32,000 nucleotides of DNA, from NCBI GenBank assembly GCA_048886185.1, contig JBHLKY010000003.1, forward strand, positions 30,001-62,000, in the 5' to 3' direction. Positions 12,782 to 32,000 of the stretch are shown piece after piece. The notes beneath the pieces are model-generated. The model saw nothing but the letters and a program-made list of their open reading frames with translations. It ran no database searches and was not told the DNA's origin. The position numbers and the translations under genes were made by a program. Positions within the stretch are counted from its first letter, which is position 1, and each line of letters begins with the position of its first letter. The stretch comes from Candidatus Hermodarchaeota archaeon (lineage in GTDB: Archaea > Asgardarchaeota > Heimdallarchaeia > Hodarchaeales > Hodarchaeaceae).

Positions 12782-12874
12782 GCGCTGATAGTCTAGTCTG
12801 GTTAGGACTCCAGCCTTCCATTCCCATTAAAGAGGAGATAGCTGGCTACCCGGGTTCAAATCCCGGTCGGCGCA
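12782..12874 (+). tRNA. tRNA-Gly(TCC), one 19-nt intron at 37/38 (12821-12839)
   Basis: Acceptor GCGCTGA/TCGGCGC, anticodon stem CCAGC/GCTGG, T-arm CCGGG-TTCAAAT-CCCGG; BHB central helix CUUC/GGAG. Confidence 0.95.
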
Positions 12875-12894
12875 TTTCTTCTTTGTAAGAATTT

Positions 12895-14136
12895 TTAAGA
12901 AGAAACATACCGTAAAATTGCACAAATTCCTCCGAAACTTTGTATCTGCCGTCCTTCTTCAGTTTGTGGGCTAATAATTTCTATAATTGCCCCAGTTTTC
13001 TCTGCTAAATCACCCAAATCCATGATAAGATCTTTCTGGTTTATTTCCCACTTGTTTACTCTACATCGAGAACATTGTTGCTTACTTAGCTGGGTTAAAT
13101 AATTCTCCACCTCGGAGGTCTTCAATGTTTTTTCTTCCCTATAATTACAATTTTGGCATTCAGCTTCTACTCGGACTAAATCTATACCTTTAGAGATTAA
13201 TAAAATATCAACAGCTCCCATTAAAAGATTTTCACGAACTTCCTTCTCCCCATAATTCGCTTTTCCCTCTGTTAACGCATCAAGGAATTGACGTACCAGT
13301 TGTTTTTCCTTGATGAGAGTCACCCCTTCCAGAATATCTTGTGATTCTGCAACAAGTTCATTAATCCCACTTTTATCTCCTCCATATCCTAAATCCTTAA
13401 TCCCCAGAGTTTTCTCTTTCAAGCGCGGATCAAAATACTCAATAATTTGATCTTTTATCTGTCCAGGTCCCCCAATAATCACACCATTTAATTCAAAACG
13501 AGTATCCTCAATGAAGAACTGTTTCATATCATCTGCGACACGTTTTAAAAAACGTGCAACTGCCTCTTCCCTCAATCTCGCAAACCGGACGCTACTCTGA
13601 CCTCCTTTACGATGCTTTTTTGCAGCGCCGCTTCGGGTACTCTTCAAAATCTCGATTTGATCCCCTTTCAGTGTTGCTATTGTGGCTTTTGCGCTATCAA
13701 TAGCCAATAAGGCATATGTTTCTTTTTCAACCAAACGATCAATGAGATATTCAACATGAAAGCGATTATCACACACATACAACTTACGAGAAATAGGTTG
13801 GGGAGGTTCGAATATATATGACTCAATCTTGTAGTCCTTATGTCCTGAATCCGCGGTTGCGCCTGCAAAAATTGCTATCCCTGATGCTGGTGATTTATGC
13901 CCATATAACTTAAGCTTTCCAATAACATTTCGTAATGCTGAGATGACATTCTTCTGTGTAAATTTACTCCGAATATTAGTGGCAGTACCTACCTCATCAG
14001 TTAATTCTTGGACAAAATCGGCTATCGTTCGATCAGGGGGCACATATAGGGAAATTAAACACGTACTTCCATCAGGAGATTCCTTTTCCTGTAAATTGGT
14101 GAGCATTCTTTCAAGTTTGTATTGTTTAAAGCTCAT
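12895..14136 (-). CDS. prf1: Peptide chain release factor aRF1
   Basis: GGQSS, NIRS (NIKS variant), YVCDNRF motifs and a CxxC/CxxC mini-domain; ATG at 14136 preferred. Confidence 0.97.
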   Translation of the reverse strand: MSFKQYKLERMLTNLQEKESPDGSTCLISLYVPPDRTIADFVQELTDEVGTATNIRSKFTQKNVISALRNVIGKLKLYGHKSPASGIAIFAGATADSGHKDYKIESYIFEPPQPISRKLYVCDNRFHVEYLIDRLVEKETYALLAIDSAKATIATLKGDQIEILKSTRSGAAKKHRKGGQSSVRFARLREEAVARFLKRVADDMKQFFIEDTRFELNGVIIGGPGQIKDQIIEYFDPRLKEKTLGIKDLGYGGDKSGINELVAESQDILEGVTLIKEKQLVRQFLDALTEGKANYGEKEVRENLLMGAVDILLISKGIDLVRVEAECQNCNYREEKTLKTSEVENYLTQLSKQQCSRCRVNKWEINQKDLIMDLGDLAEKTGAIIEIISPQTEEGRQIQSFGGICAILRYVSS

Positions 14137-14581
14137 TGTTATAAGGGTACCTCCTTTACACGAGGTTATTGCGTTCAAATCTTCTTATCTCAAACCTTAG
14201 ACCCTTCTACCATCATCAGTTCAAGAAACAGCAATTAGAGGCTTATGTGTGCAGTTTCCCTCATTTTTATTAAAGGTGAGGTCTTGCACTAACAAGTTGG
14301 CGAGTACGAGTAGATGGTTTTGTAGGGGAATATATCAATGGTGTAATGATTCATTTAATTGTTTTAATTCCGTATTGTTCTATACGTACATATACAAATT
14401 CCATATGTTTGCTTCTGTGACCTCCTTTAACCTGTTTTTTTCAAGAAATTTCGCAAATTCTTGAGGATTTCTAATTTTTCACTTTAGACTTGCCTAATTT
14501 GTTATTGTTGACATTAAATAAAGTTATTTGATCATGTTCTAGAATATTTCTCGTATTTAGTGTATCATAAAGAATCATTAG

Positions 14582-15586
14582 TTAGGAATTAAATACTGCA
14601 AGGTATTTTTGATAATTTTCTATTAATTCAGTAATCGTCAGTTGTTGCCAATCACACACGGGAGAGTATTCAACTAGGTCAATACAGAGAGGAGTAGCCG
14701 AGGTTTTGCGTAATAACTGCATTAGAGCTCTTAATGTTGTTAATATATTGTCTGTTTGATTTTTTAAGCTGGTTTTCTTAAGTCGAATAAAAGTTTCTAG
14801 ATTCGAAAAAAAACCCAAGAATTTCCCCAAGAGATATGGTCTTGATAATTGATTTTTAATATTCTTTTCTGCAAGCATCTGTTTTAAATTCATCGAATGA
14901 CCAATGACCTTGTTCCTATGCCAATAATTTGAGTACCCTAAGAAATTGATTTGAGATTCTTGACAATAATCTAAGTCAAAACTGATGTATATCTTTTTTC
15001 CTCTCAACCAATTAAGAAATTCAGCATTTTTACCTATTTGTTTTAGATTTGGCTCAATGAAAGCAAAGGAAGATGTAAGTGTATCAAAATCATGATGAGT
15101 TTCAGCCCAACCTCCAATTACAGTAGTTATCCCTGCTAGCTCTTTGATAATCCAAGCTCCATGTGGAGAAAGTGACTCTGTAAAATCAAAATGAGCATCA
15201 AATGTGACAATACCAAATTCATCTCTAAATCTTCGCTTATAGTTTTGAGCTATATAACGAGAGGGAGCGTGTGAAGTTGCGATATTAATGAATTGGCGTT
15301 TATCCTCCCATTTGAATTTTATAATATCGTTAAATTTATTTGTACCAATGATGCTACTGTGGATAGGTTGTACAAGATAGGAGAATAATTCTTTTGTGAA
15401 ATATGGATCAAAAAGTCCTGAAAAATCAACATATGGATAAATCTTTTTAAACTCTTGAATTTGCATAACAGCCCAGTATTCTTCAGCCCAAAATAATGTT
15501 GTTCCGTATGTTTGTGCGGGAAGACAATAAGGATATACTGTTGGGGGCTTTGAATCACCACAAGGAATGTGATTTTTGGAGAACAT
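14582..15586 (-). CDS. Divergent arginase/ureohydrolase-fold protein
   Basis: FDAHFDF and ISFDLDY metal-binding motifs; starts 7 nt after the pyrH stop. Confidence 0.6.
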   Translation of the reverse strand: MFSKNHIPCGDSKPPTVYPYCLPAQTYGTTLFWAEEYWAVMQIQEFKKIYPYVDFSGLFDPYFTKELFSYLVQPIHSSIIGTNKFNDIIKFKWEDKRQFINIATSHAPSRYIAQNYKRRFRDEFGIVTFDAHFDFTESLSPHGAWIIKELAGITTVIGGWAETHHDFDTLTSSFAFIEPNLKQIGKNAEFLNWLRGKKIYISFDLDYCQESQINFLGYSNYWHRNKVIGHSMNLKQMLAEKNIKNQLSRPYLLGKFLGFFSNLETFIRLKKTSLKNQTDNILTTLRALMQLLRKTSATPLCIDLVEYSPVCDWQQLTITELIENYQKYLAVFNS

Positions 15587-15593
15587 CAGCTTT

Positions 15594-16277
15594 TCATAGA
15601 TTCTGTATTACAGTCCCAACATCTTTTCCTTGGATTGCTTTTTTGATTTTTTCCACATTTGCATCAGTAATAATGACACGAATATTTGTTCGTTCACATA
15701 TTTTAGCAGCAATAAGAGTAAACGGAGCATTTGACCCAGCTTTTAATGAGAGGGGAGACACAATTTCATAAAACTGATAATATGTTAAATTGCTGTATTT
15801 TTTGGCATCAGAGTATTGATTTGGATCTTTATCATAAATACCATCAACATTCGTGACATTCACAAGAATTGGAGACCCAAATAAGTCTGCTAAAATGGCA
15901 GCATCTTCATCTGTTTTAATAGCTGTTAAAAATCCTCCTGATACTCCAATATTGTACGATTGAAGGTGTTCCATTAAATTTTTCACAGATGTAGGTAAAA
16001 TTGGAGAACTGTACCCTTTAAAATAGTAAGATAATAAACGAGCATTTAACCAAGTTGCAGCAATTCCCATATAGTCCCGTTCACCTTCAGTTAATTCTTC
16101 AGGTAGTCCTTTAATGTATTCTCGAGCAACTTTCCCCCCACCGCAAACAATCATAAATTTATATTGATTTATGAGCTCTTTAATCATGATAGAGAAGCTC
16201 TTAAGAAATTTTTTATTAATTTCGCCAGGATTGATGATACTTCCACCTAAAGAGAATGTAATAAGAGGTTTCGTCAT
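15594..16277 (-). CDS. pyrH: Uridylate kinase
   Basis: SLGGSII, VCGGGKVAREYI, RDYMGI, TNVDGIYDKDP motifs; ATG at 16277. Confidence 0.95.
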   Translation of the reverse strand: MTKPLITFSLGGSIINPGEINKKFLKSFSIMIKELINQYKFMIVCGGGKVAREYIKGLPEELTEGERDYMGIAATWLNARLLSYYFKGYSSPILPTSVKNLMEHLQSYNIGVSGGFLTAIKTDEDAAILADLFGSPILVNVTNVDGIYDKDPNQYSDAKKYSNLTYYQFYEIVSPLSLKAGSNAPFTLIAAKICERTNIRVIITDANVEKIKKAIQGKDVGTVIQNL

Positions 16278-16449
16278 ACAAGGCACCCAAAAATTCAACA
16301 GCAGGATGCTTTAATTCTCTTTATGTAATTTCTATCCTTTAAGAAAACTATTCCAATCAAATTTTTTCTTTCTAATCTTAGCTCATACTTGTTTCTGTAC
16401 AAAGAAACTGAGATTGTTTCAATTTTATTTGTCAGAAGAAAAGGAAGTA

Positions 16450-16608
16450 TGCCGAGGGTGCGATTTGAACGCACGACAACTGGATCTCCATCATGCAGAT
16501 AAATCCATGACTTCAGTCCAGCGCTGACGGGATAATAGACCAATAAAGGATGGTGATTCTCCCGGGTTTCTCATTTACTTATGAAAGCAAACTCTAAGCT
16601 ACCTCGGC
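16450..16608 (-). tRNA. tRNA-Phe(GAA), three introns: 15/16 (16567-16593, 27 nt), 22/23 (16526-16558, 33 nt), 37/38 (16486-16510, 25 nt)
   Basis: Removing them gives a 74-nt cloverleaf GCCGAGGTAGCTTAGCCCGGGAGAGCGCTGGACTGAAGATCCAGTTGTCGTGCGTTCAAATCGCACCCTCGGCA; each junction folds as a BHB or relaxed BHB. Confidence 0.88.
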
Positions 16609-16693
16609 AGTAGCAAATACGAAGTAAGTCAGTCAATACTAGCAAGTGATTAAAAATTTTTACTTTTATGGGAGTATAAAACTAAGAGTATTC

Positions 16694-16882
16694 TTAATCG
16701 ATCCGCCGGTATTTGTTAAAATTTTTTCGTGCCCAAGAATATCGTCGTAATTTTGGGCTGGGATACCCACAATATGCGCATTTCTGCTTTCGTTTGTGGT
16801 ATGAGTGATTACCACATCTTCGACATTGCATATGAGTTCGTTTGGCTGTGTGTTTTCCCCGTGCTGCAGTTCCTTTTGTCAT
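16694..16882 (-). CDS. rpl37e: 50S ribosomal protein L37e
   Basis: MTKGT..HMQCRRCG.HSYH..KCAYCGY zinc finger. Confidence 0.97.
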   Translation of the reverse strand: MTKGTAARGKHTAKRTHMQCRRCGNHSYHKRKQKCAYCGYPSPKLRRYSWARKNFNKYRRID

Positions 16883-16937
16883 CTTTTACAACTCGTTATT
16901 TAGTGAATTGATATGATAATAAACAATCAAATTCTCT

Positions 16938-17177
16938 CTAAGGTGGAGAAATAAGTATTACATTATCTCCTCTAAGGATAATATTTCCTAATGTTTCAGT
17001 TACTGACTCCTGATCATCTTCTTCTTGAGAAGGATAAATCATTTCCGCGTCTTCAAGGTATAAGTTTAGATGCGGATCGTAACTTCGTAAGATCCCACGG
17101 ATTTCACGATGACCGCGTACTTTAAGGATTACTTTTTTATTGAGGGCGGCTGTTAATACATCTAACGGTCTACTCAT
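16938..17177 (-). CDS. Sm/Lsm-family RNA-binding protein (SmAP)
   Basis: RPLDVL, GILRSYDPHLNLYL, IILRGDNVILISP; upstream of rpl37e as is usual in archaea. Confidence 0.95.
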   Translation of the reverse strand: MSRPLDVLTAALNKKVILKVRGHREIRGILRSYDPHLNLYLEDAEMIYPSQEEDDQESVTETLGNIILRGDNVILISPP

Positions 17178-17221: not shown

Positions 17222-17361
17222 TGCTCCGACCGGGATTTTCCGACTACAAACGATCTGTTTGTTTCCTTTGAACCCGGGTCCTTCCGCGTGGATTCAATAT
17301 CGAATTCAGCCAGATTCGGGGCGAAAGCCCGGAATGATGGGCCGAGCTACACTATCGGAGC
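17222..17361 (-). tRNA. tRNA-Glu(TTC), two non-canonical introns: about 43/44 (17282-17315, 34 nt) and 59/60 (17236-17266, 31 nt)
   Basis: Acceptor GCTCCGA/TCGGAGC; T-arm CCGGG-TTCAAA|T-CCCGG. The 75-nt mature form has a C27.A43 mismatch, so the first junction is less certain. Confidence 0.82.
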
Positions 17362-17560: not shown

Positions 17561-17914
17561 GTGTTCATTGATCTGGTATCGTCCCATCGTCGAAAAAGAC
17601 GGAAAAGGTCTCAGGAGAAACAAGAAATTCGGTTTCTTACTCAAGAAGCGATAACATTTTTTACAGAGGAGAGTCTGAAGATTCGCTTAACTGATCCATT
17701 ACATTCTCAAGAGTTATTCCGTTCAGCTCGAAAAATCGGGAAAAGAAGCCGGTTTCATATTCCACGACAATATCGTTTTTTGTTTTGTCGGTCATGCTGT
17801 TCACCTTTAAGCATCAAAACTGCTAAAATTCGCTTAAATAGTAAAAAACAACAAATTCAATATTTATGTTTGAATTGTAAGAAGGTACACCGGTTTGGAT
17901 ATTTAAAAAAGTAA
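17561..17914 (+). CDS. rnp4: Ribonuclease P protein component 4 (Rpp21)
   Basis: ARKIGKRSRFHIPRQYRFLFCRSC..KIRL..CLNCKKVHRFGY zinc ribbon. Confidence 0.88.
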   Translation: MFIDLVSSHRRKRRKRSQEKQEIRFLTQEAITFFTEESLKIRLTDPLHSQELFRSARKIGKRSRFHIPRQYRFLFCRSCCSPLSIKTAKIRLNSKKQQIQYLCLNCKKVHRFGYLKK

Positions 17915-17931
17915 AATTAGAAGGAATAGGT

Positions 17932-18258
17932 ATGCATGTAACAATTTACACCACATTTGATGATTTAGATGAAGCAAAAAAGTTTTCACGCCTCTTACTA
18001 GAGAGAAAACTTGCAGCTTGTGTGAATTTGATTCAGGGGGTTCATTCGATTTATCGGTGGAAAGGAGAAATTGAAGAAGCAACAGAAGTAATTCTATGGG
18101 GTAAAACTCAAGATTTTTTAGTTGAAAAAATCCAATCCATGATCCAAGAGTCTCATTCCTACAGTTTACCTGCTTTTGTGGTTTATCCAATTCAGACAGG
18201 AAGTAAAGCATATTTAAAATGGATAAGTGATGAAACACAACTAGCTAAACATCAATAG
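17932..18258 (+). CDS. cutA: Divalent-cation tolerance protein CutA
   Basis: LLERKLAACVN, SIYRWKGEIE, HSYSLP motifs. Confidence 0.93.
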   Translation: MHVTIYTTFDDLDEAKKFSRLLLERKLAACVNLIQGVHSIYRWKGEIEEATEVILWGKTQDFLVEKIQSMIQESHSYSLPAFVVYPIQTGSKAYLKWISDETQLAKHQ

Positions 18259-19279
18259 AAACCTTAAATCGAGTATCAAGCTTCTCTGTGGTAATAACAA
18301 CTCCTAATAATTCTTCTATCAGCTTGATATTAGTTTTGGTATGGTTGGATAAATATGGGGTGTAAAAAACACTCGATGTTGAAGCTGTTGCTATAATAGG
18401 TAGAATTTGATCTGCTAAAAACGGATCAATAGTACTTTGACTATTAAGAGTTGTAATATAACGTTCAAAAGCTTTTTTACCCACTGTTTCTGCAGATAGC
18501 TTACGTTCACCTATAAAATCCCCACCAATCACATTATTTTCGGCTTTTGAGAAGACTAAAACTCCTGAACCAGGATTATCTGCTTCAACAGATTCCATTA
18601 CCACTTCGGAATCTATAGACTGTTTTTGCAGGTTTGTGACAATTGTGTTTGCTTGTCTTTCTGCAACTCGCGCTCTTTGAAGATGTTTTGTTTCGAAGGA
18701 TAGAACATTTGCGATTTTTGGCTTTTTAAATACTTCAAGATTCAATCCTTTAAAAGAAGAAGGAGAGTGAATTGTAGCTAAAACTTTTGCTCCTCCCTTA
18801 GGAAAAAACCCATGGCGAAGAATGTTAATCTCAAGATTGTAATTCAATTGACGAAGGATTTCCCAAGTGACATGATTAACATAGGGAATAGTAGGAGCCC
18901 ATTTTCCAAAAGTTGCCCCACCTCGAATCTGTACCTTAAGAGAATGATTCTTGACTCCAAGAATAGCCACCTGAAGAGACTGCAAAATCAATCCAATACT
19001 ACCAGCTGTTGTAACAGAAATCTTCAAATCTGAATTCCAAGAGTTAGCTGGGGTGAAGAAAACTGTTCCTGATCCAATATGATCCCCTTCTAATTCACCA
19101 CCACAAAAATCAGCTAATGCACGAAGTCCCACAAGATGTTGTGTTTGGAGTCCAGGGTTTGGGCGATTTTTGCGGATATCAACAATTTTGACGGGTTCTT
19201 GCATCACAAGAGCAAAGGAGGTCACTAAGCGAAGAATAGATCCTCCCCCTTCCCCTAAACTTCCATCATAAACACGCAA
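18245..19279 (-). CDS. rtcA: RNA 3'-terminal phosphate cyclase
   Basis: DGSLGEGGGSILR, RPNPGLQTQHL, RHGFFPKGG, ADQIL and catalytic HTKTN motif. TTG at 19279 matches the usual N-terminus; the track start 19369 is also possible. Confidence 0.92.
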   Translation of the reverse strand: MRVYDGSLGEGGGSILRLVTSFALVMQEPVKIVDIRKNRPNPGLQTQHLVGLRALADFCGGELEGDHIGSGTVFFTPANSWNSDLKISVTTAGSIGLILQSLQVAILGVKNHSLKVQIRGGATFGKWAPTIPYVNHVTWEILRQLNYNLEINILRHGFFPKGGAKVLATIHSPSSFKGLNLEVFKKPKIANVLSFETKHLQRARVAERQANTIVTNLQKQSIDSEVVMESVEADNPGSGVLVFSKAENNVIGGDFIGERKLSAETVGKKAFERYITTLNSQSTIDPFLADQILPIIATASTSSVFYTPYLSNHTKTNIKLIEELLGVVITTEKLDTRFKVSIDV

Positions 19280-19375
19280 ATGGAGACCCCAAACAAATTC
19301 AGCATGCTGATCAAGGCGACAACGAGGGAGATTATAAGGATTACGGCTTTTCCTATCCTTATACAGCAAAAAGAG

Positions 19376-20176: not shown

Positions 20177-20464
20177 ATGCAGTATTACATGAGTGTATCA
20201 GAGATTCAAGATCGAGTAAGAACATTGATTAATCATTTCACAGGAAGTTATAGTTTGAAATCCCCCTTTTTCAATCCAAGATTGGTGAATTCTCTCCAAA
20301 AAATGGTGGATCCCAACCTTCTAAACAACGAGAAAGTAGCTGAAGAAATTATAACGGCTTTTTTAAATTCTATCATCTTAGCTGGGCAATTGGGCATTGA
20401 TATTGAAACAAAAGTAAATGAGTATCTTATCCAGCTTGAAAGAGAAGCTCTCTTTGCGATGTAG
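20177..20464 (+). CDS. Degenerate MazG-like (all-alpha NTP-PPase fold) small protein
   Basis: SEIQDRV and VAEEIITAFLNSIILAGQLGIDIE resemble the family pattern; acidic metal ligands are largely missing. Confidence 0.5.
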   Translation: MQYYMSVSEIQDRVRTLINHFTGSYSLKSPFFNPRLVNSLQKMVDPNLLNNEKVAEEIITAFLNSIILAGQLGIDIETKVNEYLIQLEREALFAM

Positions 20465-20509: not shown

Positions 20510-21586
20510 TTAGCCAAAGAGAGCCATAATTGAATCAAGAGTTGAAAAACCTAATACTAGAGATATTAAGACACCTAATACCAAACATCCTAATCCTCCA
20601 AAAATAGGAAGTGGGAGGCCAGGTAAAGCTCTTTCTTTTTTCAAAAACTTGAAAGTATAATACGCACCCACAAAAAGTCCAGTGAGCGCTGTGATGAGAG
20701 GAATTGGAGTAACTAATTCAACGCCTATCACAACAGCAACACTTATCAGCATGCTGAAAAATGCAAAATCACCAAGGCCTATATTTATTAAAGGAGTGGA
20801 ATAGACTGGAAGAGCTGGTAACAAAGGAACTTTCTCATATTCATACCCATTTTGAGAATTCATGGCTTTTTCATATTCCTCAGCAGTTTCCCGGCCGTGG
20901 TCAATAATTCCTTTCAAAGGACCACGAAAAACAGCATAAATGTCATATAATGACAACCCTACTAAGATTAATATAGTAGTAAGGAGACCAAGATGTATAG
21001 CTAACATTGAGCCAATCATAGCACCAAAAAAGATCATCATCAGGTTACGAAACCAGATTCTATCGAAACTCTGGATACCAAATGAGATGATACCTAATAC
21101 TCCTAAAATTATTGCAAAAAGGTATAGTAATGGTATAAAAAGTGTGTTGATCCAACCTCTTATGAGATTGGGTAAATATTTCCACAAGAAGTTGATAACA
21201 TTAAAAGAAATGATTCCCCCATAAAATGCTCCAAAGACAAACCAGCTGAATCCCATCATCGCAGCGAAGAAATAGACCAATAACTGCATGAATCCTTTCT
21301 TTATTATAATTAAGACTACGATCCCACCAATAAAGGCTAATGTAACGTAAAAAATCATATTTAGAATTGCTCCGTAAGCAATTCCACCTGGATCCTCTGG
21401 ATTTTCTGGAATTGGGGAAATATCAGGGCGAGTATAATTTGGGTTATCCTGTTCTATCATTGCGTAGTAATCAAGTGTGAATAATGATAAGACAATAGCA
21501 ATCACAAGGACGAAAACTATCGGCTGAATAAATGCCCTTAACTTAGCTTCGGAGGTTTCATGGCTTTCGGTTGTACTTTCACTCAT
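20510..21586 (-). CDS. Presenilin-family (A22) intramembrane aspartyl protease
   Basis: LYDIYAV (YD), IGLGDF (GxGD) and C-terminal ALPGLP motifs; multi-TM. Confidence 0.9.
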   Translation of the reverse strand: MSESTTESHETSEAKLRAFIQPIVFVLVIAIVLSLFTLDYYAMIEQDNPNYTRPDISPIPENPEDPGGIAYGAILNMIFYVTLAFIGGIVVLIIIKKGFMQLLVYFFAAMMGFSWFVFGAFYGGIISFNVINFLWKYLPNLIRGWINTLFIPLLYLFAIILGVLGIISFGIQSFDRIWFRNLMMIFFGAMIGSMLAIHLGLLTTILILVGLSLYDIYAVFRGPLKGIIDHGRETAEEYEKAMNSQNGYEYEKVPLLPALPVYSTPLINIGLGDFAFFSMLISVAVVIGVELVTPIPLITALTGLFVGAYYTFKFLKKERALPGLPLPIFGGLGCLVLGVLISLVLGFSTLDSIMALFG

Positions 21587-22709: not shown

Positions 22710-22782
22710 TGCGCCGACTGGGATTTGAACCCAGGTCACCTGTGTGGCAGACAGGAGTCTTACCAGGCTGGACTATCGGCGC
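22710..22782 (-). tRNA. tRNA-Gly(GCC), intronless
   Basis: 73-nt cloverleaf: GCGCCGA/TCGGCGC, CCTGT-CTGCCAC-ACAGG, CTGGG-TTCAAAT-CCCAG. Confidence 0.97.
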
Positions 22783-22976: not shown

Positions 22977-23771
22977 CTAATAAATTCTTTTATTCCTTTG
23001 GAGGCTATTCTGAAGTTTAAGTTCTACCCATTTCAAAACTCCCATCATTGTACTAAGTTCACGCCCTGTGACATATCCTCGCGAAATTATATTCGTAAAT
23101 GCTTGTAATGCAACATGCTGTTTTTCAGGATGGTATCCAGTGATTTTAATTACCTTTTCAAAGTAATTCATCAGTAATTGCCTTTCTTTATGAGAAGCTG
23201 CACGATATTTTAGTTTACCTTCAGAATCATTAAGGGATATTTCCTGGAGCTTTTGGTTAAGAAAATACAATATAATAGCGACCGCGTGTGAAATATTCAT
23301 TGAAGAATAAGCCATATGGGTAGGAATAGTAACCAGTAGATCACATAAATCTATTTCTTCATTAGATAATCCTGATTGTTCTCTACCAAATACAATTCCC
23401 AGTTTATTGTACCAAAAATCCTCTTTCCACAACTGTTCTGGGGAAATTGCTACCCTTTTTAAATTATAGTCACTCCCTATTCGAGCTGTTGTGCCAATTA
23501 AGAATTCAAATTCGTCACGTACATCCTGAAGATGCATAGCAAGCTGAGCTTGATTAATGATCACTTCAGCACGGCGGGCTACAATTTTTATCTCTGAATC
23601 TGACAATTCAAGTTTAGGATTTATTAGAAGAAGATTTGAAAAACCAAAGTTCATCATAGCTCTTGCAATATTACCTAAGTTTTGAGGTTTACTTGGTTCG
23701 ACTAGAATAATGTACAAAGAATCCCACTTGAACTTCTTCTTTAAATTATTATTGCGAGAATTATTACTCAT
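22977..23771 (-). CDS. trmJ: SPOUT tRNA C32/U32 2'-O-methyltransferase, TrmJ family
   Basis: LVEPSKPQNLGNIARAMMNFG, VFGREQSGLSNEE, YSSMNISHAV motifs. Confidence 0.88.
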   Translation of the reverse strand: MSNNSRNNNLKKKFKWDSLYIILVEPSKPQNLGNIARAMMNFGFSNLLLINPKLELSDSEIKIVARRAEVIINQAQLAMHLQDVRDEFEFLIGTTARIGSDYNLKRVAISPEQLWKEDFWYNKLGIVFGREQSGLSNEEIDLCDLLVTIPTHMAYSSMNISHAVAIILYFLNQKLQEISLNDSEGKLKYRAASHKERQLLMNYFEKVIKITGYHPEKQHVALQAFTNIISRGYVTGRELSTMMGVLKWVELKLQNSLQRNKRIY

Positions 23772-24059
23772 GAAATCATCTCAACATTGAATGACTTTTT
23801 ATATCCAGTAATGATGAGAATTACATCCTATTCGCTAATAAAAATGGATAATAGGGGTAATGCCATTTAACCTACTCTAAAGACCTATTCTGATCTGATT
23901 AACCTAGATTATGCAATATTGACACATTAATGGTAAAGATATTCTTTTTAACAAAGTATTATTGATTTACTAATCAAGAGTCACACCTTAAAAAAGATAA
24001 ATATTGATGTTCATACTGCGTGTCTTGCCCCCTCGGTGGAAATATTACACCTCTAAAAT

Positions 24060-24222
24060 GCGGGGGTAGCCAAGCTAGGTCAAAGGCGGCATTCATTGGG
24101 CTAGATGATAGCTTAGTATATCATATCATGTCGCGCCGTCCAAAGGCGCTGGACTTAAGATCGCTTTTTGATAAGCAATCCAGTCATATAGATGTACGTG
24201 GGTTCAAATCCCATCCCCCGCA
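24060..24222 (+). tRNA. tRNA-Leu(TAA), two introns: 21/22 (24084-24143, 60 nt) and 37/38 (24160-24177, 18 nt)
   Basis: Acceptor GCGGGGG/CCCCCGC and long variable arm; 85 nt after splicing. Anticodon BHB CUUA/UAAG is perfect; D-loop BHB GGUC/GUCC has outer helix GGCG/CGCC. Confidence 0.88.
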
Positions 24223-24230
24223 TTTTTCTT

Positions 24231-25559
24231 TCAATAGAAATCACGAGAATTTTTTTCTCTTTCCCCGATTAGATAAGTAGACCCAATATCTGTTACCTGG
24301 GCTTTCAAAAACTGTCCGAGTGAAAGATTTCCATCTTCTATCAATATCGGTAAATATGATGGATTTCTACCAATGAATTGCTTGGAGTGTTTTCCAAATT
24401 CATCAATCAGAATTATTCCCTTCCATCCCAGCCATTTTTTCAGTTCTTTTTGAGTGATCGAATGTACTAATTTGGTCAATTCCCTACTACGGCTAGCTTT
24501 GACTTGTGTTGGGATCTTGGGTGAAAACTGTGATGCTAATGTTTCTGGACGATCAGTGTATTTTGAAATATTTACAATTAAAGGTTTAATTTCACGTATA
24601 AGTCTTTTAGTTGCCTCGAAATCGTTTTGAGTCTCTCCAGGAAAACCAGCTATTATATCGGTTGCTAGGACAAATTCATCGACTTTTTGTTGCAATTGAG
24701 AAACGAGGTCAATGAAATATTGACTGGTCTCTTTTCTTCTCATTTTCTCTAGAATTGGGTCAGATCCAGACTGAATCGGTAAATGAAGAAAGGAAAACAC
24801 TTTTGGGTTGCATAATTGCTGGACTAAGGGATCAAAGAAGTTTTTTAATGTATTTGGAGTCATCATTCCTAATCGTATGAAAAAATCTCCTTTTAATTGG
24901 GTAATAGATTTAATTAGATCTGGAATTTGTAATTTAGGTGAAAGATCCCACCCGTAAACGCCTGTATCTTGCGAAGTGAGCCATATTTCTTTACTTCCAT
25001 TTGTTGTTGCAGCCTGTATTTCCGCTATGATTGATTCTTGGGAGCGTGAGCGAACATTGCCCTTAATATTTTTAACAATACAAAAAGCACATGAACCCAA
25101 ACACCCCCGAGCTATCTCGATCGTTGTGATTACTGGATTGTAGCGAAATCGTTCTTCTGTGTAGAGTTGAGACCATACTTGAGGGCTACTTATCTTGATT
25201 TCTTGCACAGACTTACTTTCTAAAAGGTCTTGAATTTGATTCGCAGCTTCTGGGAACAGAATTCTCGCGCGTGGTAAGTTTTTTGTAACCCAATTCCGCA
25301 TAACAACAGGTAAACAGCCAGTTACAATGATTTCTTTAGTCTCTGATAAAGATAAAAGCATACTTTTCATTTTATGCTCTGTATTTTGTTTTACAACGCA
25401 TGTGTTAGCGATGATTACTTCAGCATCTTTAATAGATTTAGTTAGAGGGTATCCATGTCTTTCTAAAATACCGATTATCCCTTCTGCGATGGCCCGATTA
25501 GCACTACAACCATAATTTAGAATATGAATTGATTTTTTGCCCTTTTCTAACGTTTTCAT
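24231..25559 (-). CDS. tRNA t6A37 methylthiotransferase (MiaB-like, archaeal e-MtaB/CDKAL1 type radical SAM)
   Basis: NYGCSAN, ANTCVVK, GCLGSCAFC, TDIIAGFPGET motifs and C-terminal TRAM domain. Confidence 0.88.
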   Translation of the reverse strand: MKTLEKGKKSIHILNYGCSANRAIAEGIIGILERHGYPLTKSIKDAEVIIANTCVVKQNTEHKMKSMLLSLSETKEIIVTGCLPVVMRNWVTKNLPRARILFPEAANQIQDLLESKSVQEIKISSPQVWSQLYTEERFRYNPVITTIEIARGCLGSCAFCIVKNIKGNVRSRSQESIIAEIQAATTNGSKEIWLTSQDTGVYGWDLSPKLQIPDLIKSITQLKGDFFIRLGMMTPNTLKNFFDPLVQQLCNPKVFSFLHLPIQSGSDPILEKMRRKETSQYFIDLVSQLQQKVDEFVLATDIIAGFPGETQNDFEATKRLIREIKPLIVNISKYTDRPETLASQFSPKIPTQVKASRSRELTKLVHSITQKELKKWLGWKGIILIDEFGKHSKQFIGRNPSYLPILIEDGNLSLGQFLKAQVTDIGSTYLIGEREKNSRDFY

Positions 25560-25654
25560 CTTAATATAATCCGAACTACTTTACTCTGCAAAACATTTTT
25601 TTAAGATCTGAGACATTTTTACAGCTGTGTTATTCATTCCTGAAGGTGTAAAAG

Positions 25655-25804
25655 ATTCGAACTGTAACCCTTTATATAGAAGAAGAGTTAATAGATGCCA
25701 TGGCTGAACTTGTTAGGAATGGAAAATATCCAAATCGTTCTGAATTTGTACGTTCAGCCATTCGAGACTTAATTGACAAATATCAAAATAACCATGAATC
25801 CTGA
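25655..25804 (+). CDS. Ribbon-helix-helix (CopG/Arc/MetJ) regulator, 49 aa, apparent ATT start (absent from ORF track)
   Basis: My translation: (I/M)RTVTLYIEEELIDAMAELVRNGKYPNRSEFVRSAIRDLIDKYQNNHES; in-frame TAA two codons upstream. Confidence 0.8.
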   Translation: MRTVTLYIEEELIDAMAELVRNGKYPNRSEFVRSAIRDLIDKYQNNHES

Positions 25805-25839
25805 TTTTTCTTTTTAAGAAGTATTATTATGATACTTCA

Positions 25840-26948: not shown

Positions 26949-28241
26949 ATGAGAGTTTTGAATAAGATTGAGCATATAAAGGATACGCAGAACAATAACA
27001 CTCGTGCATGGTTTACAGGAAATGTACTACTACTAGGATTTGTTTCTTTCTTTGCGGACATTTCTGGGGAAATGATGACTCCAGTATTACCTCTTTTCAT
27101 TGCTGCTTTAGGTGGTTCTAGCATTGTAATTGGATTTATTGGGGGTTTAGGAGATGCAATCGCAAATATTGTGAAAGTTTTTTCTGGATACCTTGCTGAT
27201 AAGACTGGTAGGAGAAAAGGGTTAATAGCGGTAGGTTATGGTGTCCCATTTTTAGCGAAACTGGGGATAGGCTTATCGAACTCTTGGGAGCAGGTGTTAG
27301 TCTTAAAACCAACTGAAAGATTGGGAAAAGGAATTCGAGGTGCACCCCGCGACTCCCTACTAGCTGATTCTATATCATTAGAAATGAGAGGAAAGGCTTT
27401 CGGATTTCATAGAATGATGGACACCGCAGGAGCAATTATTGGATCATTTCTTGCGTTAATAATTGCTTTTTTCTTCTTTAATGTTTTAATTAGTGAACTT
27501 GAAGTTCTCAAAATCATTATCATCATTTCTGCGTTTATATCGCTACTTGCTGTTATTCCGATATTTTTCCTATCAGAATCAACAGGTATCATTCCTGAGG
27601 AAGAGAGGCATAAGGGAAGTTTGCTTCAAAATATCAGGGAGTTACCTAAAAGTTATTACAAGTTCTTAATAGTCTCCATTATCTTTGGGTTGGGTAATTT
27701 TACTATTCTTCTTTTCATCCTCCATTCTAAAACTGTTGTTTTAGGAATTGATGAGACAGCTCCAGCTATCATTCTGATAACCGTTCCAATAATCATTTTC
27801 ATTTGGTTTAATATTATATATACAGTTTTATCCATTCCCTTTGGAAGTTGGTCTGATAAATATGGACGAAAGCCTGTTTTTGCTATTGGTTTAACTCTTT
27901 TTGCCATTACATGTTTTGGTTTCCTCTTTACAACAAATTTTATACTTCTTTTCTTATTCTTTGGAATATATGGTGCTTTTAATGCAGCAACAGATGGTAT
28001 TCAGAAAGCATTTGCAGTTGATTTACTTCCTCAAGATCTTAAAGGGACGGGACTAGGGTTATTACAGACTCTGGTGGGATTTGCCGGAATCATAGGGGGA
28101 GTGATTGCTGGATACTTATATGATTTAGAAGTTAATTTTGCATTCATGTATGGAGGGATTATGACAATAGTTGCACTATTATTACTATTAATAATAAAAT
28201 TACCTTCCTATGAGAGCACGACACAACAGACTCAGATTTGA
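26949..28241 (+). CDS. Major facilitator superfamily transporter
   Basis: GYLADKTGRRK and WSDKYGRKP MFS loop motifs, GKGIRGAPRD; about 12 TM; ATG at 26949. Confidence 0.92.
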   Translation: MRVLNKIEHIKDTQNNNTRAWFTGNVLLLGFVSFFADISGEMMTPVLPLFIAALGGSSIVIGFIGGLGDAIANIVKVFSGYLADKTGRRKGLIAVGYGVPFLAKLGIGLSNSWEQVLVLKPTERLGKGIRGAPRDSLLADSISLEMRGKAFGFHRMMDTAGAIIGSFLALIIAFFFFNVLISELEVLKIIIIISAFISLLAVIPIFFLSESTGIIPEEERHKGSLLQNIRELPKSYYKFLIVSIIFGLGNFTILLFILHSKTVVLGIDETAPAIILITVPIIIFIWFNIIYTVLSIPFGSWSDKYGRKPVFAIGLTLFAITCFGFLFTTNFILLFLFFGIYGAFNAATDGIQKAFAVDLLPQDLKGTGLGLLQTLVGFAGIIGGVIAGYLYDLEVNFAFMYGGIMTIVALLLLLIIKLPSYESTTQQTQI

Positions 28242-28345
28242 TACCAACAAAACTAGAGATTAAAACACTTCTCTACTCTGAAAATGCATTAAATCAGAGT
28301 AATATATATAGTCTTAAATTTACTTTCTAAAGTTCATAATTAGAA

Positions 28346-28450
28346 CGGGCGCAGAGGGATTTGAACCCCCGACCAACAGGTATCTTTAGGTTAAATATAG
28401 AAACTTAATCATTAAAAGCCTGTCGCTCTACCTGGCTGAGCTATGCGCCC
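28346..28450 (-). tRNA. tRNA-Lys(TTT), one 31-nt intron at 37/38 (28382-28412)
   Basis: GGGCGCA/TGCGCCC, ACAGG/CCTGT; perfect BHB central helix CUUU/AAAG. Confidence 0.95.
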
Positions 28451-28459
28451 TTAGGTGTC

Positions 28460-28567
28460 TGGCGCCCCGGTCGGGATTTGAACCCGAGTCGGATGGGATC
28501 AGCAGACTATCAGGCTTGATACACCTTTGACAGCCATCAATGCTAGGCCAGACTACACCACCGGGGC
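28460..28567 (-). tRNA. tRNA-Asp(GTC), one 30-nt intron at 37/38 (28498-28527); CCA encoded
   Basis: GCCCCGG/CCGGGGC, GATGG/CCATC, TCGGG-TTCAAAT-CCCGA; relaxed BHB with 3 of 4 central pairs. Confidence 0.95.
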
Positions 28568-28766
28568 TATATTTGAAATAAAGGCCTCTATTACCTTTTT
28601 GTTAAATATGCCTTCAAGTCTGTCCCTTCTTTCTCAATTTTTTAAATTAATCCTCTCTTAAAGATATTCAACATCTAGTTCCTGCATAACCTTAAAATCC
28701 TAGACACAATGCAAGGAAAATTGCTAGATACCCCTTCGTGTAGGGTCTTATCCCCGAATCATATGT

Positions 28767-28987
28767 GCTGGGGTGGCTTAAATGGTAATAACAATATTAT
28801 CATGGCGATGCCTGGTATAATCATACTGTCTATAGTCAGAATGCCGATAGCGCGGGACTCATAATCTGAGATGAATACTCATAACTTTCCAAGGGCAAGA
28901 ATCGCGCTTTCAGACGAGACATCCCGAAGTCGGGGGTTCAAAATAAGGTAAATTGCGATTTACTTTTTGAAAATCCCCTCCCCAGCA
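28767..28987 (+). tRNA. tRNA-Met(CAT), elongator-like, four introns: 14/15 (28781-28809), 22/23 (28819-28848), 37/38 (28864-28920), 59/60 (28943-28973)
   Basis: Removal gives a 74-nt cloverleaf GCTGGGGTGGCTTAGCCTGGTATAGCGCGGGACTCATAATCCCGAAGTCGGGGGTTCAAATCCCCTCCCCAGCA; all four junctions fold as BHB-type motifs. Confidence 0.87.
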
Positions 28988-29085
28988 TCTATTCGACTTC
29001 CCTTAGCATAAACAGATGTATATTTGCAGCACAACTCAATTAAGACCAATCACGTTCAGAATTGATATGTAAAGAAAAGCCCACT

Positions 29086-29225
29086 GCTCCGATAGTGTAG
29101 CTCGGCCCATCATTCAGGGCTCTCAATGAAGTCCACTAGATATGGGGCTCTCAGGAGTTCCCCTGTGACCCGGGTTCAAAGGAAACAAACAGGCCGTTTG
29201 TAGTCGGAAAATCCCGGTCGGAGCA
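29086..29225 (+). tRNA. tRNA-Glu(CTC), two introns: 37/38 (29126-29159, 34 nt) and 59/60 (29181-29211, 31 nt)
   Basis: GCTCCGA/TCGGAGC, CAGGG/CCCTG; anticodon BHB CUCU/GGAG; 75 nt mature. Confidence 0.92.
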
Positions 29226-29288
29226 TTCTCTATTTTTCCTAATATTGTTTGTAATTTTCCTTTCCTAGCATCCTTTATTCCTTGTTTT

Positions 29289-30653
29289 TCAACCAAATAA
29301 TCCCTCCATCCCTGGCGGGATTCCTCCTGGAGGAGCTCCTCGGCGACCCCGTATCTTTCGCATCATTTTTAGCGACTTCGCAGCCTGGTTAAATTGATTT
29401 AAGAGTAGTTTAACTTCTTGAGGTGAAGTACCTGACCCCTTGGCTATTCTCTGGATACGCTTGCCTTTGATTATCCGAGAATTATCTAATTCTTCGTCAG
29501 TCATTGAATTACAGATTGCAATGAATCGTTTCATGTTTTTTTGGCTTTCTGCTTCTAACATGGGCTGATTTCCAGTCAATGCACTGACACCAGGTATTTT
29601 TGAAACTATTTTTCCTATCGAAGACTGTTTACTTGCATTTTCTATTTGTATTTTGAAATGTCGTAAGGTTAATTTTCCTTTTTTAAGGGCATCACGAAGT
29701 TCTGCTGTGTCTTCTTCATCAAAAGCTTCATTTACACTTTGCAATAATCCCTCGATATCTCCCATACCCAAAAGAGAACCCACAAACCGTGTTGGATTAA
29801 ATTCCTCTAAGTCTTGAATCCTTTCCCCATCACCGTAGAATCGTATTTTTGCTCCTGTTATTGCGACAGCAGAGACAGCTCCTCCACCTTTAGCGGATCC
29901 ATCCATCTTTGTTAAAATAATTGACCCAATGGGTGTTGATCGGTTAAAAGCATCAGCTTGGGCTTGAGCTTGCTGCCCTATCGTCGCATCAACTACAAGA
30001 ATTATCTCTGTTGGTTTTGCAATCTTTGAAATATCCTGCATTTCTTTTAATAAGGCTTTTTCCTCTTTATGTCGGCCAGCAGTATCTATTAAAATGAGAT
30101 TAATACTTTTTTTCTCCGTAAAGTATTTTAATCCGTTTTTGATGACTTTAGAGGAATTTTTCTCTTTTTCATCTCCAAACACTTCAACATTAATAGGTGC
30201 AAGATATTGTTGGAGCTGAGCTAAAGCACCTGGTCTAAATGTGTCTCCTCCTATGACACCGACATTGTATCCTCTTTTTTGGAAATAATTCGCAGTTTTT
30301 CCAATAGATGTTGTTTTACCTGATCCTTGTATGCCAATAAACATTAAAATTGATTTCTCAGTTGGATTTAGTCGTAATGGAGCATATTGTTTGCCTAATA
30401 GTTTTGAAAGTTCATCATAAATCACTTTTAGAGTGTAATCTTTCCGACTAACGGCCATGGGAATGATGTCTTTGAGTGCTCTTTTACGGACTTCTTCAGT
30501 TACATTAAGTACTAAATCAAGGTTAACATCAGCTGCAAGAAGAGCATTTTCTAAATCTTGAATAAGTTCATTGATCAATTTTTCGTCAACAATCGGTGCT
30601 CCACGGATTTTCATGATTGTTTTCCGTAATGATGAGCCTAAAGAATCAAGCAT
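29289..30653 (-). CDS. srp54: Signal recognition particle 54 kDa protein
   Basis: GIQGSGKTT, DTFRPGA, DTAGRH, TKMDGSAKGGGA motifs and M domain RIQRIAKGSG. Confidence 0.97.
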   Translation of the reverse strand: MLDSLGSSLRKTIMKIRGAPIVDEKLINELIQDLENALLAADVNLDLVLNVTEEVRKRALKDIIPMAVSRKDYTLKVIYDELSKLLGKQYAPLRLNPTEKSILMFIGIQGSGKTTSIGKTANYFQKRGYNVGVIGGDTFRPGALAQLQQYLAPINVEVFGDEKEKNSSKVIKNGLKYFTEKKSINLILIDTAGRHKEEKALLKEMQDISKIAKPTEIILVVDATIGQQAQAQADAFNRSTPIGSIILTKMDGSAKGGGAVSAVAITGAKIRFYGDGERIQDLEEFNPTRFVGSLLGMGDIEGLLQSVNEAFDEEDTAELRDALKKGKLTLRHFKIQIENASKQSSIGKIVSKIPGVSALTGNQPMLEAESQKNMKRFIAICNSMTDEELDNSRIIKGKRIQRIAKGSGTSPQEVKLLLNQFNQAAKSLKMMRKIRGRRGAPPGGIPPGMEGLFG

Positions 30654-30866
30654 ATGTCATAATCTCCTTTCTTGATAAAGATGAATTTTTCCCTACTTTC
30701 TCCATTAAATTCTCGCGTTGAATATTTATATCAATGATATTAGTTCTAATCAGAGTGATTCAAGGTTCTGTACAATAATTAATAAATCTTATTTTGCAAG
30801 TCAGACGAATTTCTAACTTCATCCTGTTTGATTTATGAACCATACCATTCTTAGATCTATAGGAAA

Positions 30867-31415
30867 TCATACCTTTGATTTAAAATTATCTAGAAGATAG
30901 TTAAGAATTGTAATAGTTTGAGAGCTTAAATATATTTGAGACCCAAGGGAAATTTTTGGTAATTGATTAAAGATCTCATAATGTTCCTCTAGGAACCCTA
31001 TTTGATCTCCAATTAAGAAGGAATCATGTTCTTCAAATAAATGAGATAAATGTTCGCCTTTACTATCTAATAAGATATAGTTATGTTTGTTAAGACAATG
31101 ATTCAGATTTTGGGCATAAAATCTTATCCCAGAATAAGAATAACCCTTAAAAACTCGTTTTAGTACACCTGCTATCGCTCTTTCATCTGGATTTATCCCC
31201 CGAACTTTTTCACCAGAAATCTCTAGTAATTTACCGTTAATCTGAAAATATATTTCGAGGATGACATCTTTCCTGAAATGATCAGAGAGAAAGAAAGCTG
31301 CAGTCACACATCGGCAAAGAACATCCAAGCGACCATATCCAGTAAGCGAATTGAGAGAAAGAGGTTTTGAAGTATCTACAGTATTAGATATGATAAAAAA
31401 ACGTCTTATCATCAT
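30867..31415 (-). CDS. trmY: tRNA (pseudouridine54-N1)-methyltransferase
   Basis: GRLDVLCRC, FFLSDHFRKDV, INPDERAIA, IGDQIGF, ISLG motifs. Confidence 0.88.
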   Translation of the reverse strand: MMIRRFFIISNTVDTSKPLSLNSLTGYGRLDVLCRCVTAAFFLSDHFRKDVILEIYFQINGKLLEISGEKVRGINPDERAIAGVLKRVFKGYSYSGIRFYAQNLNHCLNKHNYILLDSKGEHLSHLFEEHDSFLIGDQIGFLEEHYEIFNQLPKISLGSQIYLSSQTITILNYLLDNFKSKV

Positions 31416-31617
31416 TTCTCAACTTCTTATGGCTGAATCATTTTATTTAATTTGTATTTTTACTTATTTTTCCTTTAGAAAAAAGTAAAAAAAATTCTTG
31501 AAAGTGAAAAAATTGAATCACTGGAGAAGTAAATCCAGAAAATACAGTTGATCATTACGAAACTCTGAAACCACCCATGATATGATTCTTAATCAGTATA
31601 ATTGAAGGATTTTACTA

Positions 31618-32000
31618 ATGGAACAGTCAATCCTAAATAAGGTTAAGCAACTAACAAAAGAAGTCCATTGTTGTAATTCATGTCTTGGACGGCAATTTGG
31701 AAATTTATTGACAGGATTGACAAATTTTAAACGAGGTGAGGCACTTAAAATTTTATTATTAATGGAATGGGAGATGGATCATCGGTTATCTAAGAAAGAA
31801 CCTCCTAACTATTCATCATTACTTTCTAAAGATTTTGATATCGGGAGAATGTCAATTCAACGATTTTATCCAGAATTCAAAGCTAATGATTCAGAATGTG
31901 AAATTTGTCACAGTCTTCTTTCTCCTCAAAACTTGAATAACTTAGTTACGAAGGCTCTTAGCGCGCTTGAAGAGTATGAGTTTTCATCTTTTCTTGTCGG
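31618..32000 (+). CDS. pus10: tRNA pseudouridine(54/55) synthase Pus10, 3'-truncated (absent from ORF track)
   Basis: My translation: MEQSIL..CCNSCLGRQFGNLLTGLTNFKRG..CEIC..YEFSSFLV; frame open to the window end. Confidence 0.88.
   Translation, partial: MEQSILNKVKQLTKEVHCCNSCLGRQFGNLLTGLTNFKRGEALKILLLMEWEMDHRLSKKEPPNYSSLLSKDFDIGRMSIQRFYPEFKANDSECEICHSLLSPQNLNNLVTKALSALEEYEFSSFLV

Follow-up and report, generated by a model that had tools for sequence, protein, structure and literature searches.

A heavy load of introns in transfer RNA (tRNA) genes has already been described for Asgard archaea. In three complete Asgard genomes 92-95% of the tRNA genes are interrupted (Valentin-Alvarado et al., 2024; PMC11291895), and a census of 90 Asgard genomes revealed hidden introns in the D-arm and repeated intron gains, with two paralogues of the splicing endonuclease EndA in 44 of 60 genomes (Goswami et al., 2026; bioRxiv 10.64898/2026.10.13.758758). 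Noncanonical introns can be cut by two types of EndA, of which the (alpha-beta)2 form is one (PMC5829648). In Sulfolobus, tRNA and core genes cluster in the early-replicating regions that surround the origins (PMC3091651, published in 2010). In this study, we analysed 32,000 nucleotides (nt) of a Candidatus Hermodarchaeota genome (assembly GCA_048886185.1, contig JBHLKY010000003.1, forward-strand positions 30,001 to 62,000; hereafter the window), in which multiply interrupted tRNA genes are interleaved with genes for tRNA maturation. With respect to its introns, the window is a further example of what has been published. Our results suggest that these are ordinary tRNA genes with bulge-helix-bulge (BHB) introns, which lie in a tRNA-dense sector of the chromosome where translation genes abound, and that the neighbourhood includes one or two linkages also seen outside the genus. 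We consider this the probable explanation, and the interleaving with the genes for Rpp21, TrmJ, MtaB, TrmY and Pus10 is best read as a reflection of general chromosome organisation.

Nine tRNA genes were found between positions 12782 and 29225, where 0.19 would be expected per 19.2 kb (P about 8e-13), and 16 introns are split across eight of them (Table 1). Seven introns lie at 37/38, and the other nine at 14/15, 15/16, 21/22, 22/23 (two), 44/45 and 59/60 (three). A preliminary description of this DNA had listed the same number of introns and the same sites, and our solver, parsing by hand and ARAGORN runs on the spliced sequences all bore it out; the intron that it had placed at about 43/44 lies at 44/45, in the variable region. 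Neither the Rfam tRNA model nor ARAGORN, with or without introns allowed, was adequate for the multi-intron genes: of the nine, default ARAGORN reported one, Rfam at its gathering score four, and ARAGORN, once introns were allowed, five (one parsed wrongly). We therefore relied on a method of our own, in which a scan for T-arms was combined with a spliced-cloverleaf solver that allows several introns. The BHB geometry was calibrated on the canonical intron of tRNA-Lys, in which the four exon bases at -6 to -3 ahead of the 5' splice site pair with the intron bases at -6 to -3 ahead of the 3' splice site, and the cut falls after the second base of the bulge.

Genome-wide, the solver scores were bimodal, with real genes at 52-70 and the remaining matches at 42 or less, and the maximum reached by noise in 1.63 Mb of reversed sequence was 46. 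The eight window genes parsed by the solver scored 58-67; tRNA-Glu(UUC), with its weak BHB, was parsed by hand, and its orthologues score 51-59. When spliced, all nine tRNAs (73-84 nt) were recognised by ARAGORN, which is independent of the solver, as complete intron-less tRNAs with the expected anticodon. The central BHB helix has three or four of its four pairs in all 16 introns, and the flanking helix has at least 2 bp in 15 of them. Since the solver demands at least three of the four central pairs, this test is in part circular; the motif played no role in placing the 44/45 intron. Most of the genes have an AT-rich region upstream and a run of T downstream.

Two of the genes deserve comment. 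In tRNA-Leu(UAA), miscalled as Lys by ARAGORN with introns allowed, the 60-nt D-arm intron (24084-24143) carries an 8-nt direct repeat, CAAAGGCG, at both edges, which makes its boundary ambiguous: the D-arm is unbroken in the DNA, and nine equivalent positions are open to the splice site, of which 21/22 gives the best BHB. In tRNA-Glu(UUC), the BHB of the 44/45 intron is weak (3/0/1, that is, three of four central pairs and nearly no flanking helix). This intron was fixed by comparison with relatives. We located the TrmJ gene in 40 related genomes and fetched the surrounding 20 kb for 20 of them. In the tRNA-Glu(UUC) orthologue at one of these loci (L024), the anticodon and variable region is intron-less, so that the mature sequence is known. 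Because this orthologue lacks the insert in the variable region, the 34-nt intron at 44/45 follows without any use of the motif, and the comparison thus amounts to a motif-free proof of an intron with a weak BHB. The same comparison identifies the C27-A43 mismatch, which is conserved, as native to this tRNA.

The congeners carry the same tRNAs at the same loci with different numbers of introns: one to four in tRNA-Met(CAU), two or three in tRNA-Leu(UAA), tRNA-Phe and tRNA-Glu(UUC), one or two in tRNA-Glu(CUC) and tRNA-Asp, and none or one in tRNA-Gly(GCC). The last of these has a 32-nt intron in one congener, the T-loop intron of tRNA-Glu(CUC) is absent in one, and the D-arm insert of tRNA-Leu(UAA) was parsed in one as two introns (19 and 37 nt). 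Among the orthologues of tRNA-Glu(UUC) at loci L016, L017, L023 and L024, the combination of introns in the D-loop, variable region and T-loop varies. Such presence and absence at one locus between congeners fits the repeated gains that have been published. Three candidates in or near the tRNA genes were discarded. An 82-residue open reading frame (ORF) at 16295-16543 merely overlaps tRNA-Phe and had no match in the family search, an 86-residue ORF at 24020-24280 over tRNA-Leu(UAA) is spurious, and a weak CRISPR repeat match at 12411-12434 is surrounded by DNA without repeats.

The solver, ARAGORN, Rfam and parsing by hand together gave 48 tRNA genes for the genome, 38 of which (79%) are interrupted by a total of 59 introns, or 1.23 per gene. 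The 48 genes make up one standard set of 46 anticodons plus two extra Gln genes; given that the set is single-copy, these genes must be functional, which lends indirect support to splicing. About a dozen genes outside the window, which the solver missed on account of weak BHBs or unusual features, were parsed by eye (Gln, Ile, Ala-CGC, Ser-GGA, Arg-UCU, Arg-CCU, and likewise His, initiator Met, Tyr, Cys and Trp), and their intron counts are less certain (one or two for Cys; four for Trp by automatic parse). The idea that intron density is special to this region largely did not hold up. The share of interrupted genes does not differ (eight of nine in the window, 30 of 39 elsewhere; P=0.66), and the mean is only marginally higher (16 introns in nine genes, or 1.78 per gene, versus 43 in 39, or 1.10; P=0.047, a post hoc value, random draws of nine genes reaching 16 introns in 4.7% of trials). 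Introns at 59/60, too, occur in at least ten tRNA genes on four contigs. Intron richness is a property of the genome, not of the window. No intron family shared between isotypes was found at 80% identity or more, the top pair between genes (77%) being that of two tRNA-Thr genes; given that no near-identical introns are common to different tRNA species, there is no sign of intron transposition.

Two features of the tRNA set outside the window were also noted. Two adjacent intron-less tRNA-Gln genes (CUG and UUG) lie at C12:160175-160364, in addition to an intron-containing pair (C3:137779-137892 and C14:26674-26782). As the intron-less pair is also present in a closed congener genome (G010, at 2.446 Mb), it is not contamination. 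An initiator-type tRNA at C14:55186-55280, unreported by Rfam, has A1-U72, three G-C pairs in the anticodon stem, and an irregular T-stem with apparently one extra base.

The preliminary description had named heteromeric or epsilon-type endonucleases as those that handle relaxed BHBs and had noted that the endonuclease gene is not in the window, which is correct. Two EndA paralogues (PF01974), with ORFs of 206 and 212 residues, lie on contig C8; each combines an N-terminal domain with one of the catalytic type (matches to PF02778 and PF01974), and they share 28% identity over 105 residues. When the two were aligned with each other and with M. jannaschii EndA (1A79), the Tyr-His-Lys catalytic triad was found to be kept in EndA alpha (...AVY..IDHS..SVRK...), whereas EndA beta (...RIY..GESIS..IDRK...) lacks the His. 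The top PDB matches of EndA alpha are crenarchaeal catalytic subunits (3P1Z_B, E=3e-41, and 3AJV_B). Those of EndA beta are the ARMAN-2 and M. kandleri (Methanopyrus) enzymes; the Nanoarchaeum subunit NEQ261, a weaker match, ranks fourth. Of possible relevance to a specificity loop that would admit relaxed BHB substrates, the N-terminal domain of EndA alpha has a Lys/Arg-rich segment, some nine residues long, that beta lacks. The predicted architecture of the pair is (alpha-beta)2. The ligase RtcB is represented by one PF01139 gene on contig C9 (534 bits).

Taken together, these genes suggest the following pathway. Transcription of each tRNA gene probably starts from an AT-rich upstream region of its own; two pairs are in tandem. 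In the precursor, a central helix of 4 bp would form between each intron and the exon bases at -6 to -3 ahead of its 5' splice site, the (alpha-beta)2 EndA would cut inside both bulges, and RtcB would join the exons. In all three 59/60 introns of the window, the central BHB helix is made up of U54-A57 and the 3' end of the intron, and in the 37/38 introns positions 32-35 are paired in the same way. Because of this pairing, the targets of T-loop and anticodon-loop modification would be sequestered until splicing. It is plausible that Pus10, TrmY and TrmJ act after splicing, the introns gating the modifications; those at 32, 37, 54 and 55 would then come last. We infer both the excision of the introns and this order from the sequences. 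Sequestration holds for any such intron in the genome and is independent of where the enzyme gene lies.

The protein genes around the tRNAs are listed in Table 1. The names given in the preliminary description (rnp4, rtcA, Sm/Lsm, trmJ, an MtaB-type gene, trmY and pus10) denote real genes, and RtcA, the TrmJ/YjtD family, MiaB-like-B, Pus10, TrmY (in Pfam) and LSm exceed curated cut-offs; the rnp4 (Rpp21) match is weak and falls below its cut-off, and two genes, those for L37e and L40e, had been missed. L37e directly follows LSm, and L40e directly precedes RtcA (7 nt). These two genes account for two of the conserved "intergenic" stretches that we had considered as candidates for hidden noncoding RNA. 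The Pus10 gene (451 residues) extends 973 bases past the end of the window and is followed by L21e and RpoF. The stretch holds 19 protein genes, eight of which have no link to RNA or translation: those for an arginase-fold protein, PyrH, CutA, a small MazG-like protein, a presenilin-like protease, ThiL, phosphoribosyl pyrophosphate (PRPP) synthase and a major facilitator superfamily (MFS) transporter. With these eight interposed, with aRF1, SRP54, L37e and L40e among the rest, and with L21e and RpoF beyond them, the neighbourhood is not specific to tRNA, as had been proposed, but a general translation and RNA neighbourhood.

Table 1. Positions of the tRNA genes and of the listed protein genes in the window, with tRNA introns (length where given, and site) and the basis of each assignment
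Feature	Position	Strand	Introns	Basis
tRNA-Gly(UCC)	12782..12874	+	12821-12839 (19 nt, 37/38)	Rfam 54.4 bits; solver score 67; BHB H4/h5/h'2; spliced 74-mer is tRNA-Gly by ARAGORN
aRF1 (peptide chain release factor)	12895..14178	-		Pfam eRF1 domains 1-3
UMP kinase PyrH, unrelated to tRNA	15594..16298	-		TIGR02076, 198 bits
tRNA-Phe(GAA)	16450..16608	-	16567-16593 (27 nt, 15/16); 16526-16558 (33 nt, 22/23); 16486-16510 (25 nt, 37/38)	Overlooked by Rfam and ARAGORN; solver score 62; spliced 74-mer is tRNA-Phe by ARAGORN
Ribosomal protein L37e, 62 residues	16694..16882	-		PF01907, 76.5 bits; conserved across genus
LSm/Sm-like archaeal protein	16938..17177	-		PF01423, 68 bits
tRNA-Glu(UUC)	17222..17361	-	17281-17314 (34 nt, 44/45); 17236-17266 (31 nt, 59/60)	Spliced 75-mer is tRNA-Glu by ARAGORN
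Rpp21, RNase P protein component 4, probable	17561..17914	+		PF04032, 28.4 bits (cut-off 29.3); NF003045, 37 (cut-off 162)
RtcA, RNA 3'-terminal phosphate cyclase	18245..19369	-		TIGR03399, 283 bits
Ribosomal protein L40e, 53 residues	19376..19537	-		PF01020, 36.7 bits; conserved across genus
tRNA-Gly(GCC)	22710..22782	-	None	ARAGORN, Rfam
TrmJ/YjtD-family SPOUT 2'-O-methyltransferase	22977..23771	-		TIGR00050, 201.6 bits (cut-off 167)
tRNA-Leu(UAA), class II	24060..24222	+	~24084-24143 (60 nt, 21/22); 24160-24177 (18 nt, 37/38)	
MiaB-like-B (MtaB) radical-SAM methylthiotransferase, t6A37 to ms2t6A37 type	24231..25559	-		TIGR01578, 381 bits (cut-off 315)
tRNA-Lys(UUU)	28346..28450	-	28382-28412 (31 nt, 37/38)	Rfam 60.1 bits; BHB H4/h6
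tRNA-Asp(GUC)	28463..28567	-	28498-28527 (30 nt, 37/38)	Rfam 43.3 bits
tRNA-Met(CAU)	28767..28987	+	28781-28809 (14/15); 28819-28848 (22/23); 28864-28920 (37/38); 28943-28973 (59/60)	Four introns; solver score 58; spliced 74-mer is tRNA-Met by ARAGORN
tRNA-Glu(CUC)	29086..29225	+	29126-29159 (34 nt, 37/38); 29181-29211 (31 nt, 59/60)	
SRP54	29289..30653	-		Pfam SRP54, SRP_SPB, SRP54_N
TrmY-family methyltransferase (m1-pseudouridine 54)	30867..31415	-		PF04013, 89 bits; NF002560, 119 bits, below cut-off 183
Pus10, N-terminal part	31618..32000	+		TIGR01213, 482 bits on full ORF (L036:618-1973)

Some of the remaining genes were of interest in themselves. A 95-residue protein encoded at 20177-20464 (+) is the most conserved of the stretch (67-96% identity across the genus); it has only a weak MazG-like match, and the proteins nearest to it in a language model are small MazG-like ones from phages and bacteria. 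The presenilin-family intramembrane protease homologue (PF01080, 49 bits) at 20510-21586 (-) keeps its position across the genus. In the gap between MtaB and PRPP synthase (25560-25839), 220 nt are conserved at 72-83% within the genus and hold only a 34-residue ORF with a weak ribbon-helix-helix match.

The view that the window belongs to a tRNA-dense sector rich in translation genes is founded on the distribution of genes in the whole genome. Of the 48 tRNA genes, 23 lie on C3 (42-202 kb) and 12 on C8, so that two contigs, with 10% of the genome between them, carry 35. In the closed congener, 13 of the 28 tRNAs detected by covariance model lie at 2.60-2.82 Mb, and in a closed genome of another family (G028) 38 of 40 detected tRNA genes lie at 1.10-2.33 Mb, which is 40% of that chromosome. 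We also measured how far genes of tRNA maturation lie from tRNA genes, using families chosen beforehand (EndA alpha and beta, RtcB, ArcTGT, Trm1, two Trm5-type, TrmI and a relative, Trm56, Pop5, Rpp29 and Rpp30) and only copies outside the window; the space within 10 kb of a tRNA gene is 9.8% of the genome. Eight of the 13 maturation genes fall within it (P=7e-6; seven of 11 when counted as separate loci). So do all five translation factors of the GTP_EFTU family, each within 4 kb of a tRNA gene, as against three of 104 ATP-binding cassette (ABC) domains. Close neighbours of this kind are Trm1 (C14:67651-69000), which ends 149 bp before tRNA-Pro(UGG), and, at C11:97042-98688, a Trm5-type gene (at 516 bp) and a GCD14-like methyltransferase gene, 0.5-1.3 kb from tRNA-Lys(CUU) and tRNA-Val(UAC). 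The fine interleaving is a feature of the genus, and the coarser sector bias one of the class.

An origin of replication may lie in the sector. The best Orc1/Cdc6 gene of the genome is at C3:95976-96260, 34 kb beyond the window, and in the closed congener Orc1/Cdc6 genes at 2620489 and 2720361 (the best at 2.72 Mb) are inside the tRNA-dense sector. Published complete Asgard genomes are said to differ in replication mode (PMC11291895). Several observations weigh against the explanation that we favour. None of the 12 genes for aminoacyl-tRNA synthetases, which are core translation genes, lies within 10 kb of a tRNA gene, and a "general translation sector" is therefore an incomplete account. Enzymes of tRNA modification are not expected to be highly expressed, and an argument from dosage or expression fits them poorly. 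The Orc1/Cdc6 gene points to an origin only indirectly, and the GC skew on C3, with a cumulative minimum near 80-95 kb, is too weak to serve as an origin marker. As for the distance test, genes that share a sector are not fully independent, and the families were few and of our own choosing.

An alternative is that selection keeps tRNA and maturation genes together as a functional district, for example through co-regulation or through local coupling of transcription, splicing and modification. The preliminary description had proposed such a co-located district, and some data are in its favour. Five clearly tRNA-specific maturation genes, plus LSm and RtcA, are among the 19 protein genes beside nine tRNA genes. 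On all contigs of the genus long enough to show it, the genes from aRF1 to Pus10 follow one another in the same order, which thus holds for more than ten congeneric species at 50-90% protein identity; two genomes of the genus are rearranged in this region. The proximity of maturation genes to tRNA genes outside the window, Trm1 and one Trm5 gene included, also agrees with the proposal and supports it in a weak form. Conservation of the order across Asgard archaea, however, was not found: the full order is restricted to the genus. One family of the same class (f3) retains only SRP54-Pus10, 4-6 kb from the TrmJ (SpoU) gene, another (f4) retains essentially nothing but an MtaB-like gene beside the TrmJ (SpoU) gene in one genome, and in these other families there are no more than two tRNA genes within the 20 kb. 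Across the phylum, a TrmY-family gene adjoins Pus10 at one of 28 loci outside the genus. At this locus (L062; genome G086, family f22), SRP54-TrmY-Pus10 recurs, in a distant family, and the 27 others lack it; this may be an old linkage that has mostly been lost, or convergence.

Other data also argue against a functional district. The proximity is not specific, as the translation GTPases show the same enrichment, and in the closed genome of the other family it is seen at the level of the sector only (seven of eight maturation genes in the same 40% of the chromosome, P=0.008, with two of eight within 10 kb of a tRNA gene, P=0.41). The genes of the neighbourhood use both strands, with possible same-strand runs in tRNA-Glu/LSm/L37e/tRNA-Phe and MtaB/TrmJ/tRNA-Gly, and unrelated genes (ThiL, PyrH, presenilin-like, PRPP synthase, MFS and CutA) lie between them. 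EndA and RtcB, the enzymes that the introns require, are on other contigs, and the T-loop introns are spread over four. Given that the order is limited to the genus, that the enrichment is shared with translation GTPases and that unrelated genes are interposed, the window is probably not a dedicated, co-regulated tRNA-biogenesis unit, and we regard selection for a district as unlikely.

Also unlikely is that the arrangement is a pure accident of history, with no organising cause beyond rearrangements fixed in the ancestor of one genus. The confinement of the synteny to the genus and the eight protein genes without a link to RNA or translation agree with this, whereas the concentration of tRNA genes in sectors of two closed genomes, one of them from another family, and the strong enrichments and depletions near tRNA genes, in both directions, do not. 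An artefact of assembly or binning, or a mobile or viral tRNA array, is very improbable: the genome is a draft in 75 contigs, its contamination estimated at 4.96%, and has tRNA genes on only eight contigs, but the same region with the same tRNAs is present inside single-contig congener genomes, the 48 genes are exactly one 46-anticodon set plus the two Gln genes, and the stretch has no integrase or phage gene among its family-search matches. The favoured reading remains that of ordinary tRNA genes in a tRNA-dense sector, rich also in genes for translation and RNA processing. Both the LSm-L37e pair and the SRP54/Pus10/L21e/RpoF neighbourhood are conserved archaeal informational gene groupings. 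In our reading, SRP54-Pus10, which recurs outside the genus, and LSm-L37e, presumably a linkage of the same kind, would have been fixed in their present order within one genus.

The study adds an example, with exact coordinates, of multiply interrupted tRNAs in another Asgard lineage, of which standard finders see between one and five of nine. The one part that goes beyond the literature we searched is the bias of maturation and translation-factor genes, but not synthetase genes, towards tRNA genes, and it is a lead rather than a result. If upheld in a proper survey, it would bear on chromosome organisation in the archaea closest to eukaryotes. As a speculation to which we give little credence at present, the genus (and, at the level of the sector, the class) might keep its tRNA, processing, modification and translation-factor genes as a spatial domain from which aminoacyl-tRNA synthetase genes are excluded. 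Such a domain, if real, would mirror in linear form the clustering of tRNA genes with early pre-tRNA processing in the nuclei of eukaryotes, to which this archaeon is closely related.

Compared with known systems, the region resembles conserved archaeal informational gene pairs in that LSm is followed by L37e and SRP54-(TrmY)-Pus10-L21e-RpoF are contiguous, whereas only this genus has the interposed tRNA genes and the union of the blocks over some 20 kb. The tRNAs resemble published Asgard tRNAs in that most genes are interrupted and many carry several introns, with sites in the D-arm, variable region and T-arm besides 37/38, in that intron number varies among close relatives, in that standard annotators overlook many of them, those with D-arm introns above all, and in the presence of two EndA paralogues (PMC11291895; bioRxiv 10.64898/2026.10.13.758758). 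The intron-richest Asgard families reach 92-98% interrupted genes and roughly 2.0-2.4 intervening sequences per gene, and the genome described here is lower on both counts. Multiple noncanonical BHB introns and a heteromeric endonuclease are shared with Thermoproteales, as far as the work of Sugahara (2008) and Fujishima (2010) is represented in its citation in bioRxiv 10.64898/2026.10.13.758758; unlike there, no near-identical intron family is shared here between tRNA species. The endonuclease, known here from its genes, has the two two-domain paralogues of about 200 residues, with the triad in one, that characterise the (alpha-beta)2 enzymes of Crenarchaeota and Nanoarchaeum (3P1Z, 3AJV, 2ZYZ, 3IEY; PMC3241643, PMC5829648), although its beta subunit is closest to ARMAN-2 epsilon2 and the M. 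kandleri enzymes. Finally, although the synthetase genes lie outside the tRNA-near space here and the similarity is one of gene positions, the genome is like that of Sulfolobus in that tRNA and conserved informational genes are concentrated in limited regions together with orc1/cdc6 genes (PMC3091651).

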